A stretch of DNA of 40,696 bases, from IMG/VR virus record IMGVR_UViG_3300017792_000001, positions 1 through 40,696 of that record. The stretch is one strand, 5' to 3'. The position numbers and the translations under genes are program-made. Every line of letters begins with the position of its first letter. The stretch's first letter is position 1. This document shows, one piece after another, positions 19,374 to 25,447 of this stretch. This DNA is from a virus (Duplodnaviria; Heunggongvirae; Uroviricota; Caudoviricetes). A model generated the notes under the pieces. That model made no database searches. It saw only the letters and a program-made list of their open reading frames with translations, and was not told the origin of the DNA.

Positions 19374-19727
19374 GTGCCAAAGAAAAGCGAAAAGATCAAA
19401 CTCAACTCCATCTTATTCATCTATGAAGTCTTCGGTGACAGCGCCCTGATCTTCTTCATTCCTGACGGTAACACGCTGGACAAGACGGTGCGTATCGCTA
19501 TGCGGACAGCGCGCAACACATTCAGCAACGGGGATGAACTGACCACAGAGCAAGAACTGGCCCACGACGTTCTCAACGCCGCCATGACCGACGATGAAAA
19601 CGCGAAGGGACTGGATCACATTCACATGCCCTTTGCTGGGCTGCTACTGCCGTTCAAAGTGACAGACCAGAAAAGTTTGCAGTCCAGCGCGAAGCTGAAC
19701 TACGTGCGCTGTGGAACATACGCCTGA
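19374..19727 (+). CDS. hypothetical protein
   Basis: AGGAG SD, GTG start; followed by a terminator. Confidence 0.8.
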   Translation: MPKKSEKIKLNSILFIYEVFGDSALIFFIPDGNTLDKTVRIAMRTARNTFSNGDELTTEQELAHDVLNAAMTDDENAKGLDHIHMPFAGLLLPFKVTDQKSLQSSAKLNYVRCGTYA

Positions 19728-19730
19728 CAG

Positions 19731-19754
19731 AGGGGAGCTATATGCTCCCTTTCT
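19731..19754 (+). terminator. intrinsic terminator (similar to 24363-24387)
   Basis: GGGAGC-TATAT-GCTCCC stem followed by TTTCT. Confidence 0.7.
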
Positions 19755-19769
19755 CAGGTCCCCACAGCG

Positions 19770-19894
19770 AGATACCTGAACTATAAACATAACCGTTAGA
19801 GTGGTTGTACTACTGATTGCAGTAGTGTATAATGAACTTACGAGAGCTAACCCGAGCAGACTGCTTACTGGTTACGCGCTTAGGTTAGGTTACT
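19770..19894 (+). repeat. 125-bp regulatory cassette, copy A
   Basis: Homologous to 24394-24518; end boxes 24/25 and 21/25 identical between copies; the two boxes are imperfect inverted repeats of each other. Confidence 0.9.
19805..19833 (+). promoter_or_regulatory. sigma70 promoter with palindrome in the spacer
   Basis: TTGTAC-17 nt-TATAAT with extended TG; ACTACTG-ATTG-CAGTAGT inverted repeat overlaps the -35 and spacer. Confidence 0.85.
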
Positions 19895-19930
19895 CAATCG
19901 AACATGAACCCCATCAGAGAGACTACGAAC

Positions 19931-20215
19931 ATGACTACTGCAACCGCTCGCAAGACCACCACCGCTACTACCGCTATCAAAACCAAACCAGTTAAGAAGG
20001 TCGTTGCCATGAAGACTGCTGCCAAGAAAGTTGTCGCTATCAAACCAACGGCCAAGAAAGCTGCAAAGCCAGCTCGTGCCAAGAAGCCAGTGGTCAAAGT
20101 CCCACGTGCTCCACGCATGACTAACGATCAGCGTCAGATGGCTGCTGTCAACAAGTTTGCAGCTACCAAGTTGGTCAGCGGCTTGATCGCTACCTACGTT
20201 CGTGAGAGCGGCTAG
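19931..20215 (+). CDS. Lys/Ala-rich histone-H1-like protein; N-terminal part of an amber-interrupted ORF (19931-20935)
   Basis: KKVVAMKTAAKKVVAIKPTAKKAAKPARAKKP repeats; ends in TAG 20213-20215 in frame with the next ORF. Confidence 0.75.
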   Translation: MTTATARKTTTATTAIKTKPVKKVVAMKTAAKKVVAIKPTAKKAAKPARAKKPVVKVPRAPRMTNDQRQMAAVNKFAATKLVSGLIATYVRESG

Positions 20216-20254
20216 AAGATCGTCACCCACGTTGATCAGCCAGAAGTCAAGGCT

Positions 20255-20935
20255 GTGCTGAACCGTGACGTGTTTGTTCGTGACGCGCACACCCAGAAGC
20301 TGGTGAAACTGGGTCGCGTTGAAAGCGCACTGGCTAGCGTTTCCCCGCATCACATGGGCTTGTTCAACATCTACACAGTCTGGGTTGACGATGGCCAACT
20401 GCCTCTGCACCAGATCCGCAAGATCGGTACAAAGTTTGTGTTTGACGCTTCGCTGCCTATGCCGAACAAACGTCAAACTCACTTGGTTGATCGTATCGAC
20501 TTCGACCAGCCTCGCGGCAAGAAGCCACGCAGCAACATTGACCCGCTGGCTACTGTGAAGCAGGAAGAAGACAACCAGTCGCTGGGTTACAAAGCCGCCG
20601 CTGTTAAGCGTGGCATCGCAGCTTCCCGCAAGAAGCCTGGTACTCTGGACGTGCGTGAGCGCAACGACCTGGAAATCGCCAAGTCGGAAGTGAAGCTGAC
20701 CAAGGTTGAAGGCGAGTTGAGCGGTGCAGCAATCGCCAAGGGTACTGCCGTCATCATCGACTCCGAGATTCGCGGTGACGTGATCAAGACGACCAAGATC
20801 CTGATCGAAGGTAAAGGCACCAAGCGCAGCCCGTTCGTGAAGCGTCGTTACATCTTCACCGAGAAAGGTCAGAAGTGCCCAGTTGCTGACCTGAAGATCG
20901 TCCGTGGCAAACTGCGCGACGTTGTTGGCGCATAA
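20255..20935 (+). CDS. basic hypothetical protein; C-terminal part of the amber-interrupted ORF
   Basis: Same frame as 19931-20215, open from 20216; no well-spaced SD before GTG 20255. Confidence 0.7.
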   Translation: MLNRDVFVRDAHTQKLVKLGRVESALASVSPHHMGLFNIYTVWVDDGQLPLHQIRKIGTKFVFDASLPMPNKRQTHLVDRIDFDQPRGKKPRSNIDPLATVKQEEDNQSLGYKAAAVKRGIAASRKKPGTLDVRERNDLEIAKSEVKLTKVEGELSGAAIAKGTAVIIDSEIRGDVIKTTKILIEGKGTKRSPFVKRRYIFTEKGQKCPVADLKIVRGKLRDVVGA

Positions 20936-20948
20936 CTCAAACATTCAC

Positions 20949-20967
20949 AAGGGGCTCCGGCCCCTTT
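20949..20967 (+). terminator. stem-loop / weak terminator
   Basis: AAGGGGC-TCCG-GCCCCTT followed by T. Confidence 0.55.
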
Positions 20968-20988
20968 CACCAATTCTGGAGCACGAAC

Positions 20989-22257
20989 ATGACCACACGT
21001 ACTATTCGCGAGCGCGTTATCGCAATCATCGCCGAACAATTCGGTTTGAAGTTTGACATCATCAAAGACACTGACACCGTAGAGAGTCTTGGTGGTGACA
21101 GCTTGGACGCCGTCGAAACCCTCATGGGGCTCGAAGAAGAATTCGAGTGCCCGGATGTAGACGACGATGAAGCCATGCATTGGATGACTGTCGCCGATGT
21201 CGTGGCATATTTTGAGAAGCTGAGCCAGCCTCAAGTTGAAGCAGCTAAGCCGGCGCGTAAAAAGCCAGTTCACCCGTCCACCGTCAACGCGGTAAAGAAA
21301 GCGCCTAAAGCATCGGCCTTCGACGTGCCGAGCATTGCTGGCTACGCACACCGTGCCGAAGTCGAGTTCAAGCAAATCAAGTTCCGCTTCGGCAATGACA
21401 GCCAGAAGGCTCTCAAGAAGGTCGGTGACGCTGAGCAGAAAGCTACAGACAAGGCACTGGCTGCTGGTGTCAAAGCTGACAAACTCACCACCACGATCGT
21501 GGCTGAGAACAAAGCAACGCCTGCGGCAAAACAGGTTCAACCGCATCTGAGCGCTATTCGCCTGTACCTGGTGCGTAAAGTGCGTGCAACTCAAGAACTG
21601 GTTGCAGGCCCGTTTGCGTTTCGTGAACAAGCGCGTACTGCACTGCGCAACTTCCTAATGGCAAACCATCAGGTCGATCCACGCCAGATGTTCATGCGTA
21701 TGGGCCGCGAACTGAATCACGGCAAGTTCACCGTGGCTAAAGGTCTGCGTCTGCCGAAGGCCAAGGTAATCTCGGTTCGCACTGACGCACGACCAAAGGC
21801 TACTGCCAAGCAGATTGCACAACGCAAGGCGAGTCAAGCTGCAACTAACGCCCGTCGTGCCGTGATTCGCTCAAACCGTTTGATCACTACAGCCATTCGT
21901 ATCAAGTCTGGCAGCCTGTATGTACTCGACAAGCGCGACCGCATCGTTGCAGGTCCTTTCAGCACGTTGAAAGCGGCGCACGAAGTTTGCATGGGTATCA
22001 AAGACCAGTACGTGCAAACGGGTGCGCGCTGCCGTAATGACAACCTGGGTTACATCCTAGGATTCAAACCAGCAACACCCGCCAAAGTCACCGGCGGTAT
22101 GTTTGCAGTCGGTGCTCCAATGATGATCGCCGCTGTTCGCACCAAGATCACCGCATACGATTCGAAAACCAAGACAGTCACGACTGGTCTTGGCACTGTG
22201 CATCCGTGTGCAGACTTCTTCATCAACTACCACAAGGCCATGCTGGCCGTCGCATAA
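20989..22257 (+). CDS. acyl carrier protein domain fused to a ~340-aa basic region
   Basis: Residues 1-77 align with AcpP (IRERV..II.EQ.G......LG.DSLD.VE..M.LEEEF.....DDEA....TV.D...Y); Ser38 attachment site intact. Confidence 0.85.
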   Translation: MTTRTIRERVIAIIAEQFGLKFDIIKDTDTVESLGGDSLDAVETLMGLEEEFECPDVDDDEAMHWMTVADVVAYFEKLSQPQVEAAKPARKKPVHPSTVNAVKKAPKASAFDVPSIAGYAHRAEVEFKQIKFRFGNDSQKALKKVGDAEQKATDKALAAGVKADKLTTTIVAENKATPAAKQVQPHLSAIRLYLVRKVRATQELVAGPFAFREQARTALRNFLMANHQVDPRQMFMRMGRELNHGKFTVAKGLRLPKAKVISVRTDARPKATAKQIAQRKASQAATNARRAVIRSNRLITTAIRIKSGSLYVLDKRDRIVAGPFSTLKAAHEVCMGIKDQYVQTGARCRNDNLGYILGFKPATPAKVTGGMFAVGAPMMIAAVRTKITAYDSKTKTVTTGLGTVHPCADFFINYHKAMLAVA

Positions 22258-22266
22258 GGAGAGAGC

Positions 22267-22599
22267 ATGACCCCGCATTTACCTGGAGACGTCGCTTCGC
22301 CCGAAGAAGGTGAAGCGTGCCAAACGTGTGGTAAACCAGCCACACAGAAACTCTGCTTTGAGGCTGACAGCTTCGGTGCAGACTACGCATACCTGTGTGA
22401 CGAGCACTTTGAGGAAGAACGCGAAGCCATGCGCAACGCTGACACCTCTGGTGCTTGCGACTGGTGCAAGAAGCACAGCGAGAAGCGATTCCCGCAGCGT
22501 GATCTAGAGGAGGGTAGCCACGGTGCAGTGTATGACGTGTGCCGTCCATGTATCGACAAACTTCATGCGTCTTGGCGTGAAGAACTGGAGGAAGACTGA
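22267..22599 (+). CDS. Cys-rich putative zinc-finger protein
   Basis: CxxC...LCDEH and CxxC...CxxC ligand sets; GGAG SD. Confidence 0.8.
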   Translation: MTPHLPGDVASPEEGEACQTCGKPATQKLCFEADSFGADYAYLCDEHFEEEREAMRNADTSGACDWCKKHSEKRFPQRDLEEGSHGAVYDVCRPCIDKLHASWREELEED

Positions 22600-22880
22600 T
22601 GGCTAAGCTACGCGATAAACAGGTTGCACTTTCACTGGCAGAAGCAGTCCTCGCAACCGCGAAAGCGCGTGAGGAAAGTTACGATCAGGTGGGCGCCGAC
22701 ATGGCATCTGTGAGCGCTCAAAACAATAGCATCGGTTTTGACGCCGAGACCTATTACAAGCTCACCATTCAACAGGCTGCTGAGCAGTGCTGCCCCGCAC
22801 CGTTCGTTGAGCCAGTAGCCATGCTGTTGCGCAACAACTGGAACGACAGCCTCGATTGGGCAAAGAACGCTGTACTGTAA
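22599..22880 (+). CDS. hypothetical protein
   Basis: GGAGG SD, TGATG overlap. Confidence 0.8.
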   Translation: MAKLRDKQVALSLAEAVLATAKAREESYDQVGADMASVSAQNNSIGFDAETYYKLTIQQAAEQCCPAPFVEPVAMLLRNNWNDSLDWAKNAVL

Positions 22881-22882
22881 AC
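22873..22882 (+). promoter_or_regulatory. TACTGTAAAC variant of the promoter motif
   Basis: 9/10 match, at the gene end, 48 nt before ATG 22931. Confidence 0.55.
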
Positions 22883-22930
22883 ACTCACTGACAGAGCGTC
22901 TATGTTGGGCGCTCTAACCGAGGAACGAAA

Positions 22931-24346
22931 ATGTCTATCTCTCCAAATCTGAACATGCTTATCGGCGGCATTCAAGTTGCACAACTTCCGGGCGCGGCAG
23001 CGGTATCCGTCTTCAACCTGATTTACGAGAACCGCGAACTCGCGCACACCCACGATGCGTTCGCCAAGATCAGTCAACTCCGTCCACTGGCTCAGGCTAT
23101 CAACATTCGCCTGACTCCGAATGCGCCGCGTCTGGCTGCAGCTGGTGCCAAGACTGAGCTGGCATTCAGCCCGTTCGAAGCGCTGAGCCTGTTCCACATC
23201 ATCGGCGCAAACATCACGCTGCGTCAAGCTGAACTGGCTCTGGTCACTGGCCGTATCGCGGTCGATCAAACCCATGCTGATGACGAGGAAGCTGAACCTT
23301 CCACCACCGAAGAAATCGCGCATGAACTGTGCGACCAACTCGACAGCGCGCAAATCTACCAGATCGTTGCGAAGCTGCCGCTGGACGGTATCGTTGCATC
23401 GCAGACCGCCGACTTCGACCTGGCTATGGCTTTGCTTGAACAGTACGGCGATACCAAGATCCAGATGACGCTGCTGGAACTCGGCATCGACTTCATTCAC
23501 CCGGACGAACCAAGCGAACCTTCTGTTATCGACACCGAAGACAGCGAAGAATTCATCGCCGAAATCCAGGATCAACTGGGCGACGACAAGATCACCAAGC
23601 TGGTCAAGGAATTCATCACCGAAGAAGATGAAGACGACGAGCCGGACATGCTGCTGGACCTGGTTGTCGAGCGCCATGGTATCGAAGCCGTTCACCAGAA
23701 GATCATCGACCTGGGCTTCGAATTCACCTCCGACCTCCTGGAAATGGAAGACCCGGACGAGTTTGAAGCGGAAGATGAAGACGAAGGCCCTGCTGCTCCG
23801 TCTGACTACGCGCTGACTGTACTGCGCAACGATCTGGAAGGCCTGCATCACAACGACCAGGTGATCCTGACCAAAGCTGTCGAGCACTCGGCAGAAGACA
23901 CGTCGGCCATGTCCTCGATGGTTGACTTCCTGATGGAGCACCCGAGCTACACCCTCGAAGCTCTGAAAGAGCACGGCATCCATCTGCAAAACTTCAAGGC
24001 AGTAATGCGCCTGCAGGACGAAGACGAAGACCGCGAAGAACGTCTGCACCGTCTCGACATTCAGGACCTGGAAATCCTGTGCGACGTGCTCGGCATCAAT
24101 CGCGTAGATCAAGACCACGACGATCTGATCGACCTGCTGTGCTGCCGTCCGCAGAGCGAGTTTGAATCTGCCCTGGAAATCACGGACATCGTATTGCCAG
24201 GTCTGGACTACGGCAGCGAAGAACCAACCATCGACGAGTACCGTGCAAACTTCGAACACATCGCCCACCTGACAATGCTGCAATCGGCGGTAGCTGCCTG
24301 CATCGCTGACAGCACGCAAGACCTGGTCCTCAGCTTCACGCACTAA
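22931..24346 (+). CDS. very acidic protein with an internal ~60-aa duplication
   Basis: GAGGA SD; D/E-rich linkers; duplicated unit at 23309-23494 and 23546-23725. Confidence 0.85.
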   Translation: MSISPNLNMLIGGIQVAQLPGAAAVSVFNLIYENRELAHTHDAFAKISQLRPLAQAINIRLTPNAPRLAAAGAKTELAFSPFEALSLFHIIGANITLRQAELALVTGRIAVDQTHADDEEAEPSTTEEIAHELCDQLDSAQIYQIVAKLPLDGIVASQTADFDLAMALLEQYGDTKIQMTLLELGIDFIHPDEPSEPSVIDTEDSEEFIAEIQDQLGDDKITKLVKEFITEEDEDDEPDMLLDLVVERHGIEAVHQKIIDLGFEFTSDLLEMEDPDEFEAEDEDEGPAAPSDYALTVLRNDLEGLHHNDQVILTKAVEHSAEDTSAMSSMVDFLMEHPSYTLEALKEHGIHLQNFKAVMRLQDEDEDREERLHRLDIQDLEILCDVLGINRVDQDHDDLIDLLCCRPQSEFESALEITDIVLPGLDYGSEEPTIDEYRANFEHIAHLTMLQSAVAACIADSTQDLVLSFTH

Positions 24347-24362
24347 CAGCGCAACGCCACAC

Positions 24363-24387
24363 AGAGGGAGCTTCGGCTCCCTCTTTT
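24363..24387 (+). terminator. intrinsic terminator
   Basis: AGAGGGAGC-TTCG-GCTCCCTCT perfect 9-bp stem followed by TTT. Confidence 0.9.
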
Positions 24388-24393
24388 GCGTCT

Positions 24394-24518
24394 AGATACC
24401 TGAACTAAAAACATAACCACTAACCCCATTGTACTACTGATCACAGTCGTGATATAATGAATCACGAAAGCGAAACCGAGACAGCTACATACTGGTTACG
24501 CACTTAGTTAAGGTTACA
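24394..24518 (+). repeat. 125-bp regulatory cassette, copy B
   Basis: See copy A; same 25-75-25 bp architecture. Confidence 0.9.
24429..24458 (+). promoter_or_regulatory. sigma70 promoter with palindrome in the spacer
   Basis: TTGTAC-18 nt-TATAAT; ACTACTG-ATCA-CAGTCGT near-palindrome. Confidence 0.8.
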
Positions 24519-24551: not shown

Positions 24552-24755
24552 ATGACCGTCAAGAACATCACGCAAATTGCCGCTGTCAGCATCAACTACC
24601 GCTGCCCGCACTGCGACTTGGTTATCTCAATGGGTAGTGACGACCTAAGAGTCGGCGTGCCGTTCAAATGTTTCTGCAAGCGCGAAGTTGTAATACCGGA
24701 AGGCACTGAGCTCCAACTGCCTCTGTTGAACATGAACATCAAACTCACCAAGTAA
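24552..24755 (+). CDS. small zinc-ribbon protein
   Basis: AAGGAG SD; CPHC...CFC. Confidence 0.75.
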   Translation: MTVKNITQIAAVSINYRCPHCDLVISMGSDDLRVGVPFKCFCKREVVIPEGTELQLPLLNMNIKLTK

Positions 24756-24766
24756 GGACTACGAAC

Positions 24767-25447
24767 ATGAACAGCACTTTTACCAAACGCCAGGAATTCA
24801 TCACCGCCATCCAGGCTGTCGCCGCAGAAGCGGGTGTGCCGTCATACACCAGCTGCATCATGAGCGACCAGGACGAACTGTTTGACGGCGAGTCGCAATG
24901 GAAGATTCGCTTCAACGACGGTGGCCCAGTGATCAGTATCACCGAGCACCGCGACGAGTACGCGGACGAGGAAGAAGATCGCAGCTACCAGACAGCCGCG
25001 CTTCTCGACTCTGACAAGGCAGACGCCGCATACAGTATGTCGCGCTCCTGGCCGCGCAGCATGTTGTTTGACCTGCGTGAAAAGTTGATCCCCGGCTACA
25101 GCAACGCCGTGGTCGAGACACCAGATGGTTTCGTCTGGCGCATAGTGACTGGTGACGTAGTGCGCGAACTGCCTGTCAAGTTGTACGAGACGGCAATCCC
25201 GAGCAGCGCCGGTGATTACGAGTTCGACCTCGACACCGAAGCCGCGAATGCCTTCTTCGAAGTACAGCCGTGTGTTTACGACAACGGTGATTACATCGAC
25301 TATGAGAAGGCGGTCGAGAAGTCTGCCGAGAAGTTTGTGATCAGGACCTTCTGGTTCTCGGGTGACAGCGACAGCTTCGGTCCGCTGATTCGCTGCGCCA
25401 AGTTCACCCTGGCCAACGGCGTCGTGTTGCACGCCAGTTACGGATAA
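24767..25447 (+). CDS. acidic hypothetical protein
   Basis: AAGGA SD + ACGAAC-ATG. Confidence 0.85.
   Translation: MNSTFTKRQEFITAIQAVAAEAGVPSYTSCIMSDQDELFDGESQWKIRFNDGGPVISITEHRDEYADEEEDRSYQTAALLDSDKADAAYSMSRSWPRSMLFDLREKLIPGYSNAVVETPDGFVWRIVTGDVVRELPVKLYETAIPSSAGDYEFDLDTEAANAFFEVQPCVYDNGDYIDYEKAVEKSAEKFVIRTFWFSGDSDSFGPLIRCAKFTLANGVVLHASYG

Follow-up and report, generated by a model that had tools for sequence, protein, structure and literature searches.

A virus record of 277,601 bp (IMG/VR IMGVR_UViG_3300017792_000001) was analysed over its bases 1-40696, here called the window, with a G+C content of about 54%. The window carries two copies, A and B, of a promoter cassette in which a sigma70-like core lies between two inverted boxes, all on the plus strand. 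Cassette A stands behind a terminator-like hairpin read in the sequence (GGGAGC-TATAT-GCTCCC with a T-rich tail, 19733..19755) that ends the gene at 19374-19727. Its left box (19770..19798, about -70 to -43) contains ACCT at 19774-19777, CTA at 19781-19783, AACC at 19791-19794 and TTA at 19796-19798. The core promoter (19805..19833) combines a -35 hexamer TTGTAC (19805-19810) with a -10 hexamer TATAAT (19828-19833), and a dyad, ACTACTG-n4-CAGTAGT, can be read at 19809-19826, in the spacer. The right box (19866..19894, about +25 to +52) presents the left-box motif inverted, with TGG at 19869-19871, TAG at 19881-19883 and AGGT at 19887-19890. Transcription is predicted to start near 19840; start sites were placed 7 nt past the -10 hexamer, and box coordinates relative to the start are approximate. 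The first gene after the cassette encodes a 103-aa basic protein rich in Lys, Ala and Thr (19904..20215, alternative start 19931).

Cassette B is preceded by a second terminator-like hairpin, again read in the sequence (AGAGGGAGC-TTCG-GCTCCCTCT followed by TTTT, 24353..24378), after the gene at 22931-24346. Its left box (24394..24422) has ACCT at 24398-24401, AACC at 24415-24418 and CTA at 24420-24422. In the core promoter (24429..24458) the -35 hexamer is again TTGTAC (24429-24434), a spacer dyad occupies 24433-24450, and the -10 element is of the extended type (TGATATAAT, 24450-24458), with a predicted start near 24465. The right box spans 24490..24518 (TGG at 24493-24495, AGGT at 24511-24514), and the dyad axis relating the two boxes falls at 24456, that is, at -9. 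Downstream lies a gene for a 67-aa Cys-rich protein (24552..24755) with its own AAGGAG ribosome site; it belongs to phrog_21581, to which PHROGs assigns no function.

The counts on which the original prediction rested were repeated and agreed in full. A terminator-like hairpin directly precedes each copy, the left boxes are identical at 24/25 positions and the right boxes at 21/25, and the linker after the left box retains 2/10. Within each cassette, 16/25 (A) or 17/25 (B) positions of the right box agree with the reverse-complemented left box. Both copies place their boxes 75 nt apart, the difference between their -35/-10 spacers (17 and 18 nt) being offset downstream. In a direct-repeat search the two copies formed the longest repeat of the window (124 nt, 19770-19893 and 24394-24517, 73% ungapped identity). 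No further occurrence of the box patterns was found elsewhere in the window at up to three mismatches, nor in 100 shuffles. When the reverse complement of left box B was compared with all window 25-mers, only the two right boxes reached at least 16 matches, against a mean of 5.9. A generic promoter scan of the window missed both cassettes because TTGTAC scores under its cutoff, and megablast of a 4.9-kb region against phage records gave no match.

The cassette family and its box motif

The source virus is a PaBG-like (Baikalvirus-like) jumbo phage. Among named phages its nearest relative is Pseudomonas phage PaBG (Baikalvirus, 258 kb). One protein encoded in the window, of 585 aa, shares 35% identity with a PaBG protein, and in synteny comparison many other proteins reach 40-85% identity. 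Two related metagenomic contigs, G002 (228 kb) and G004 (31.7 kb), were included. PaBG encodes sigma factors without an RNA polymerase, and its genome paper contains no promoter analysis (PMC7412058). No regulatory features are annotated in the stretch of the PaBG GenBank record that was examined, and the arrangement of flanking inverted boxes is not described for PaBG-like phages. The termini of the present record (1-123 and 277479-277601) are identical over 123 bp and were classed as direct terminal repeats. They probably reflect an assembly overlap of a circular or permuted genome rather than true terminal redundancy, the record probably being a circularised assembly.

A search for further copies, as had been proposed, was fruitful. 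An nhmmer profile found eight cassettes in this genome (G000), all on the plus strand, at 19.8 (A), 24.4 (B), 42.3, 54.4, 207.9, 211.8, 214.9 and 230.1 kb. With the same profile PaBG yielded nine, G002 four and G004 two; the tally for four related genomes including PaBG was 22, and 35 distinct cassette sequences were obtained once other IMG/VR contigs were included. The repeat first described as a duplicated cassette is therefore real, but it is one of a family rather than a two-copy duplication. In a sensitive blastn search of phage records with the cassette, PaBG was the only match.

All cassettes follow a common plan. The left box (consensus gATACCTnAnCTAnaaacaTAACCnTTA) is followed by a variable linker of about 10 nt and a -35 hexamer that reads TTGnAC here and, in PaBG, often TAGAC. 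The 17-18-nt spacer carries the dyad ACTG-n4-CAGT in most copies, with 7-bp arms, and a T at -18; the -10 element is extended, TGnTATAAT or TGnTATACT. A leader of about 30 nt of free sequence then leads to the right box (aTAnTGGTTACGnnnTAGnTnAGGTtA), with the first start codon 5-35 nt further on. The cassettes usually stand past a terminator and ahead of small, poorly conserved early or DNA-metabolism genes. Because the sigma70-consensus elements (TTGnAC, 17-18-nt spacer, TGnTATAAT) are kept across the 35 copies, the core, judged on sequence, is predicted to be a strong early promoter of the host sigma70 type. The right box is present in 35/35 cassettes and the left box is absent from 8/35. 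Examples lacking it are the 214.9-kb copy, where the upstream gene extends into the box position, and the 230.1-kb copy with its orthologues.

Box geometry, conservation and pairing statistics were taken over the 27 cassettes with both boxes. Left and right boxes are inverted versions of one motif of about 28 bp, ACCTnAnCTA-n4-CnTAACCAnTA. With left boxes and reverse-complemented right boxes pooled, 17/30 positions are at least 70% conserved. The mirror relation is also visible to the family profile, which matches the reverse strands of several cassettes (E-values 9.8e-6, 6e-4 and 7e-4, the last being cassette B). The central 6 nt depart from it, being systematically A-rich in left boxes and G+C-rich in right boxes. 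Averaged over pairs of cassettes, identity reaches 0.68 in the left box and 0.72 in the right box, compared with 0.70 for the -35 hexamer, 0.87 for the -10 hexamer, 0.59 for the spacer, 0.38 for the leader and 0.24-0.25, the random level, for both outer flanks. The suspicion that the boxes are under selection was borne out, as both are kept in phages that share only about 35-65% identity in the proteins flanking them. A position weight matrix (PWM) scan of four genomes located high-scoring boxes almost exclusively in cassettes, and a left box never occurred without a right box.

The left box, centred near -57, covers about -70 to -43, and the right box, centred near +39, about +25 to +52. From the A of the inner ACC of the left box to the -10 hexamer there are 36-37 nt, and from the -10 hexamer to the right box 38-41 nt. 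The claim of a gap of exactly 75 bp did not hold across the family: on that measure the gap is 75 nt in 16/27 cassettes, 74 nt in 6/27 and 73 nt in 5/27 (77, 76 and 75 nt when counted from inner ACC to TGG). Box spacing is thus tightly constrained, not invariant. The compensating indel reported for A and B does occur (36+41 in A and 37+40 in B, the same total, with three PaBG copies at 36+41), but the association is not significant, and compensation is statistically unestablished because cassettes with 36+39 and 36+40 also occur. These distances place the axis of symmetry between the boxes within the -10 hexamer, at -9 in 17/27 cassettes and between -9.5 and -8 overall.

Most copies occupy equivalent places in relatives. 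Cassette A corresponds to cassettes at 72.3 kb in G002, at 20.7 kb in PaBG and in G004, and cassette B to one at 77.2 kb in G002 that is also preceded by a similar hairpin, as are several other copies in relatives. The 54.4-, 207.9-, 211.8- and 214.9-kb cassettes have PaBG counterparts at 255.2, 102.2, 98.5 and 95.7 kb, respectively, and the 230.1-kb cassette has counterparts at 9.1 kb in G002 and 81.4 kb in PaBG. Seven of the eight are thereby clearly syntenic with PaBG or G002 copies. The eighth, at 42.3 kb, is weakly supported (PaBG 4.5 kb, G002 95.4 kb; flanking proteins 21-25% identical). The A/B pair is old, since G002 keeps the same pair 4.9 kb apart; the genes that it encloses there are at most 33% identical to those of this genome. 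The module between successive cassettes measures 0.66 kb in G004, 4.6 kb here and 4.9 kb in G002, PaBG has a single cassette at this place, and many downstream genes lack an orthologue.

Only two PaBG cassettes, at 108.9 and 12.8 kb, have no counterpart here. Both correspond here to a recurrent AACTGTAAAC motif, at 202,042 and 31,677, which is probably a promoter for a phage sigma factor. Since these motif copies occupy the positions of box-flanked cassettes in PaBG, the type of promoter appears to have been exchanged between relatives. The motif, written [AT]A[AC]TGTAAAC, has 15 plus-strand copies in the genome, those in the window lying at 1717, 4145, 7604, 22873, 31677, 35658, 38557 and 40370. 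On a related contig, L023, near 5522, ACTGTAAAC sits within the spacer of a cassette that still bears its right box.

Possible recognition by a DNA-binding protein

The similarity of the two arms could reflect base pairing or a shared recognition motif, and the two were compared by matching each arm with its own partner and with arms of other cassettes. Over all 30 positions the mean number of matches was 18.19 for own arms and 18.17 for arms of other cassettes (p=0.49). At the 13 variable positions the values were 3.3 and 3.46 (p=0.75), with complementarity at the chance level of 25%. The boxes therefore share an inverted motif without base-pairing covariation, in line with the earlier proposal of a DNA-level device rather than RNA pairing.

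We hypothesize, at a probability of about 0.5, that the boxes are recognition sites of a sequence-specific double-stranded-DNA-binding protein that bridges or wraps the promoter and thereby gates early transcription. Paired protein sites are favoured because the motif is conserved in both orientations, is read as sequence, is partly untranscribed, is restricted to promoters and lies at fixed distances from the -10 hexamer. Of the three devices suggested at the outset, a looping or wrapping complex is the best remaining reading. An early phage product would accumulate and bind both boxes, and the occupied boxes would bridge or wrap the roughly 95 bp between them, flanking the polymerase footprint. 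The early promoter would then be shut off, in a geometry like that of the GalR OE/OI repressosome, and where only the right box is present, as in eight cassettes, it would give a weaker block by itself. A negative role is favoured as the near-consensus extended -10 cores need no activator.

In the gal repressosome of E. coli, GalR binds OE at -60.5 and OI at +53.5, with HU. There, as here (about -57 and +39), sites of one recognition sequence bracket a promoter some 100 bp apart, the first upstream of the -35 element and the second within transcribed DNA, with the apex of the loop over the core. The gal operator differs in being a 16-bp palindrome bound by a dimer, whereas each box here is asymmetric and the pair is inverted, and the present cassette recurs 8-10 times per phage genome. 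Phage DNA-binding proteins that shut host-type early promoters include the phi29 p4/p6 nucleoprotein complex and SPO1 TF1. The likeness is that a lytic phage's own DNA-binding proteins would act at host-type early promoters; site sequences and geometry differ.

Several observations weigh against this hypothesis. With 8/35 cassettes carrying the right box only, looping is not obligatory, and the right box must be able to act alone at about +39, whether through its RNA or as a roadblock. Being transcribed and lying 5-35 nt ahead of the first start codon, it may have a role in RNA, and its AGG(T) is the sole Shine-Dalgarno-like sequence in copies C, D, E and F. The centre-to-centre distance of about 92-96 bp is not obviously an integral number of helical turns. 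Conserved positions show a small excess of same-cassette matches (p=0.026), which a pure protein-site model does not predict. That excess stems from two PaBG cassettes, at 108.9 and 4.5 kb, with an identical rare change in both arms: ACCT has become ACGT in one, and CTA has become CAA in the other (CAAT in both arms). These coupled changes suggest either occasional arm-to-arm correction, of the quasipalindrome template-switch kind, or chance. Finally, no box-binding protein was identified.

Pfam and PHROGs searches of the first genes after the eight cassettes and of ten conserved early-region proteins revealed no clear sequence-specific regulator; matches were to NUDIX, 5'-3' exonuclease and RecA-like families, with weak hits to Rho_N and HC2. 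One candidate, P0001 (179 aa; genome 50795-51334, L087:10795-11331), is encoded outside the window, in an early operon between the 42.3- and 54.4-kb cassettes. It is found at the equivalent place in PaBG and G002 with 63-65% identity, and so lies in the early operon of all three complete genomes. A weak Pfam AP2 match was obtained (E-value 0.0066). The structural model (mean predicted local distance difference test score 82) comprises two AP2-like modules, each a three-stranded sheet with a helix (beta3-alpha), connected through a disordered linker, with a small helical tail after them. Among its top matches in the PDB, all weak, were apicomplexan AP2-domain proteins and the tandem AP2 of PfSIP2 on a bipartite DNA site (6sy0; probability 0.75-0.82, E-value about 1e-2). 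No sequence similarity links the N-terminal half of P0001 to its C-terminal half. A homodimer prediction scored 0.00, a value that counts neither for nor against self-association.

On this modelling P0001 would be a tandem AP2-like DNA-binding protein and is a candidate box binder only. The box has two half-sites, each centred on ACC, at a distance of 18 bp, and a two-domain reader may suit this layout. The P0001 family is confined to PaBG-like contigs and, among 50,697 phage records, occurs only in PaBG, like the cassette. It is a lead and not evidence, because most clade-specific genes share the cassette's distribution. Tandem-AP2 proteins are unusual in bacterial viruses.

A more specific version of the hypothesis holds that an early protein, possibly the conserved tandem-AP2 protein, binds the mirror boxes set symmetrically around the -10 element of every early promoter and closes a loop of about 95 bp over host polymerase, already bound or incoming, shutting off early transcription genome-wide. 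We consider this version possible but doubtful. Were it true, early transcription would be shut off across the genome in a sequence-specific manner not so far described for lytic phages. For early-gene timing in jumbo phages that depend on host RNA polymerase, the family supplies a precise regulatory grammar: each genome has some 8-10 predicted early promoters, their start regions are defined, and two boxes stand at fixed positions. If a phage protein reads the boxes, it would provide a compact orthogonal repressor-operator pair for Pseudomonas and, potentially, a rare tandem-AP2 regulator from a bacterial virus. The cassettes also mark operon boundaries and can thus improve annotation of the PaBG-like clade.

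Other explanations for the boxes

The boxes could instead be protein sites that act positively or architecturally, with a host or virion-delivered factor wrapping the promoter so that it fires on freshly injected, relaxed DNA, or insulating it from read-through. The PWM specificity, geometry, shared motif and conservation would be explained equally by such sites. The left box occupies the classical position of a class I activator site or UP element (-70 to -43), its central 6 nt are mostly A-rich, and the PaBG cassettes have weaker -35 hexamers (TAGAC, TATAC and TCGAC). Cores with an extended -10 element and -18T are, however, near consensus unaided, and +39 is not a known activator position. 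By eye, neither an IHF nor a Fis site of the E. coli type is seen in the boxes, which also counts against a positive role. We regard such a role as unlikely.

A comparably unlikely explanation assigns the right box to RNA, as a 5'-leader element that loads an antitermination factor (nut-, put- or ops-like), serves as a ribosome standby site or stabilizes the transcript; the left box would be a promoter element of its own, upstream, and its likeness historical. Its presence in every cassette, including the eight without a left box, agrees with this, as do its transcription and a position set by the distance from the -10 hexamer and not from the start codon. Ahead of the box, many leaders also have a small private 5' hairpin, built around a semi-conserved AGC...GCT and located at about +7 to +25 (mean z -0.94 versus shuffles, p=0.004). 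In the window these hairpin regions lie at 19840-19865 and 24465-24489, with equivalents in relatives, and such a hairpin could act as a 5' stabiliser. The Shine-Dalgarno-like AGG of copies C-F, mentioned above, fits too. The 17 mirrored conserved positions of the untranscribed left box are nevertheless left unexplained. RNAalifold, applied to leader plus right box, returned no consensus structure and placed the right box in none, and a search of the window against Rfam at gathering thresholds was negative.

A promoter that fires in both directions, its leader mirrored, was also considered. Here the -10 element would be used both ways from divergent starts 18 bp apart, and the left box would lie in a short antisense RNA. 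In the symmetric bacterial promoters of Warman et al. 2021, as relayed in PMC10268837, positions -7 and -11 of the two strands coincide, the centre is at -9 and the starts are 18 bp apart. The axis at -9 in 17/27 cassettes coincides with that centre and -18T is conserved, and this arrangement likewise predicts conservation without pairing covariation. The symmetry here, in contrast, resides in boxes about 48 bp from the axis and not in the core. On the bottom strand the hexamer, CATTAT or CAGTAT, departs from consensus by its C at -12, and no antisense -35 element or TG extension is conserved, the region that would contain them being the leader of 38% identity, and no conserved open reading frame or terminator is present on the antisense side. 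The explanation is accordingly improbable.

We hold it quite improbable that the boxes are terminal inverted repeats or recombination sites of a mobile or invertible promoter, similar to a miniature inverted-repeat transposable element or to the promoter-early stem-loop (PeSL) cassettes of the T4-type phages RB49 and phi1 (Arbiol et al. 2010, PMC2839356). Ends that are inverted, read by protein and free of covariation would suit a transposase or recombinase, and the modules between cassettes are highly variable in size and content. Two PaBG cassettes correspond to another promoter type here, a kind of shuffling that PeSLs mediate in T4-type phages (PMC2839356). Mobility, one of the original suggestions, nonetheless fared poorly, at least for recent times. 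No consistent direct repeat of 2-9 bp that could be a target-site duplication was present at eight symmetric boundaries in 27 copies, and orthologous positions are clear for seven of the eight cassettes of this genome, the A/B pair among them. An invertible switch is disfavoured because all 35 copies face their downstream genes, in the ON orientation; the differing central 6 nt of the boxes would also be bad for strand exchange. Cassette length is, moreover, constrained though the interior has diverged.

The analogy with PeSLs is confined to architecture. Both are repeated modules with strong sigma70-like early promoters and terminator stem-loops, associated with variable, ORFan-rich sets of small open reading frames. 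Some PeSL subclasses have a stem-loop between -35 and -10, as most copies here have a spacer dyad. Upstream, PeSLs are AT-rich, and they lack a pair of conserved inverted boxes of about 28 bp. Recombination between PeSL cassettes generates indels, replacements and mini-circles; in the present family the modules between cassettes vary and the positions of the cassettes are syntenic. They belong to T4-type phages rather than to the PaBG/Baikalvirus lineage, in which most cassettes are syntenic across diverged phages.

Least credible, and very improbable, is direct pairing of left and right boxes into an imperfect stem, whether of single-stranded DNA or of read-through RNA, the latter as an RNase III-type processing site: 16-25 of 34 positions per cassette are complementary and the coupled changes in the two PaBG cassettes keep complementarity at otherwise invariant positions, but pairing stays at the chance level in variable positions and is never seen in the central 6 nt, a terminator usually stands just upstream of the left box, and the loop would not need a length fixed within 1-2 nt.

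Neighbouring genes and further motifs

The 103-aa basic protein encoded after cassette A gave a weak Pfam match to the histone-H1-like HC2 family (E-value 1e-4, below the curated cutoff). The equivalents of cassette A in G002 and G004 likewise head a Thr/Lys-rich open reading frame. The module between A and B also encodes a 422-aa protein (20989-22257) with an N-terminal phosphopantetheine-attachment (acyl-carrier) domain (Pfam PP-binding, E-value 4e-9), to which the G002 orthologue is 33% identical. ARAGORN found no tRNA in the window.

Two short motifs recur near start codons. AGTTTGCA follows many of the right boxes and is often found 10-25 nt ahead of the first start codon in the cassettes of relatives. 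It is about fourfold enriched on both strands of the genome (20 and 17 copies versus about 4 expected), mostly within coding sequence (for example at 19674 and 24531), and it was rejected as a cassette element on account of this genome-wide, both-strand enrichment mainly inside genes. ACGAACATG is a strongly preferred start-codon context with 18 plus-strand copies against about 1 expected, those in the window lying at 19896-19904, 19923-19931, 20985-20993 and 24763-24771. In many genes it separates the Shine-Dalgarno sequence from the ATG, and it is enriched in PaBG and G002 as well.

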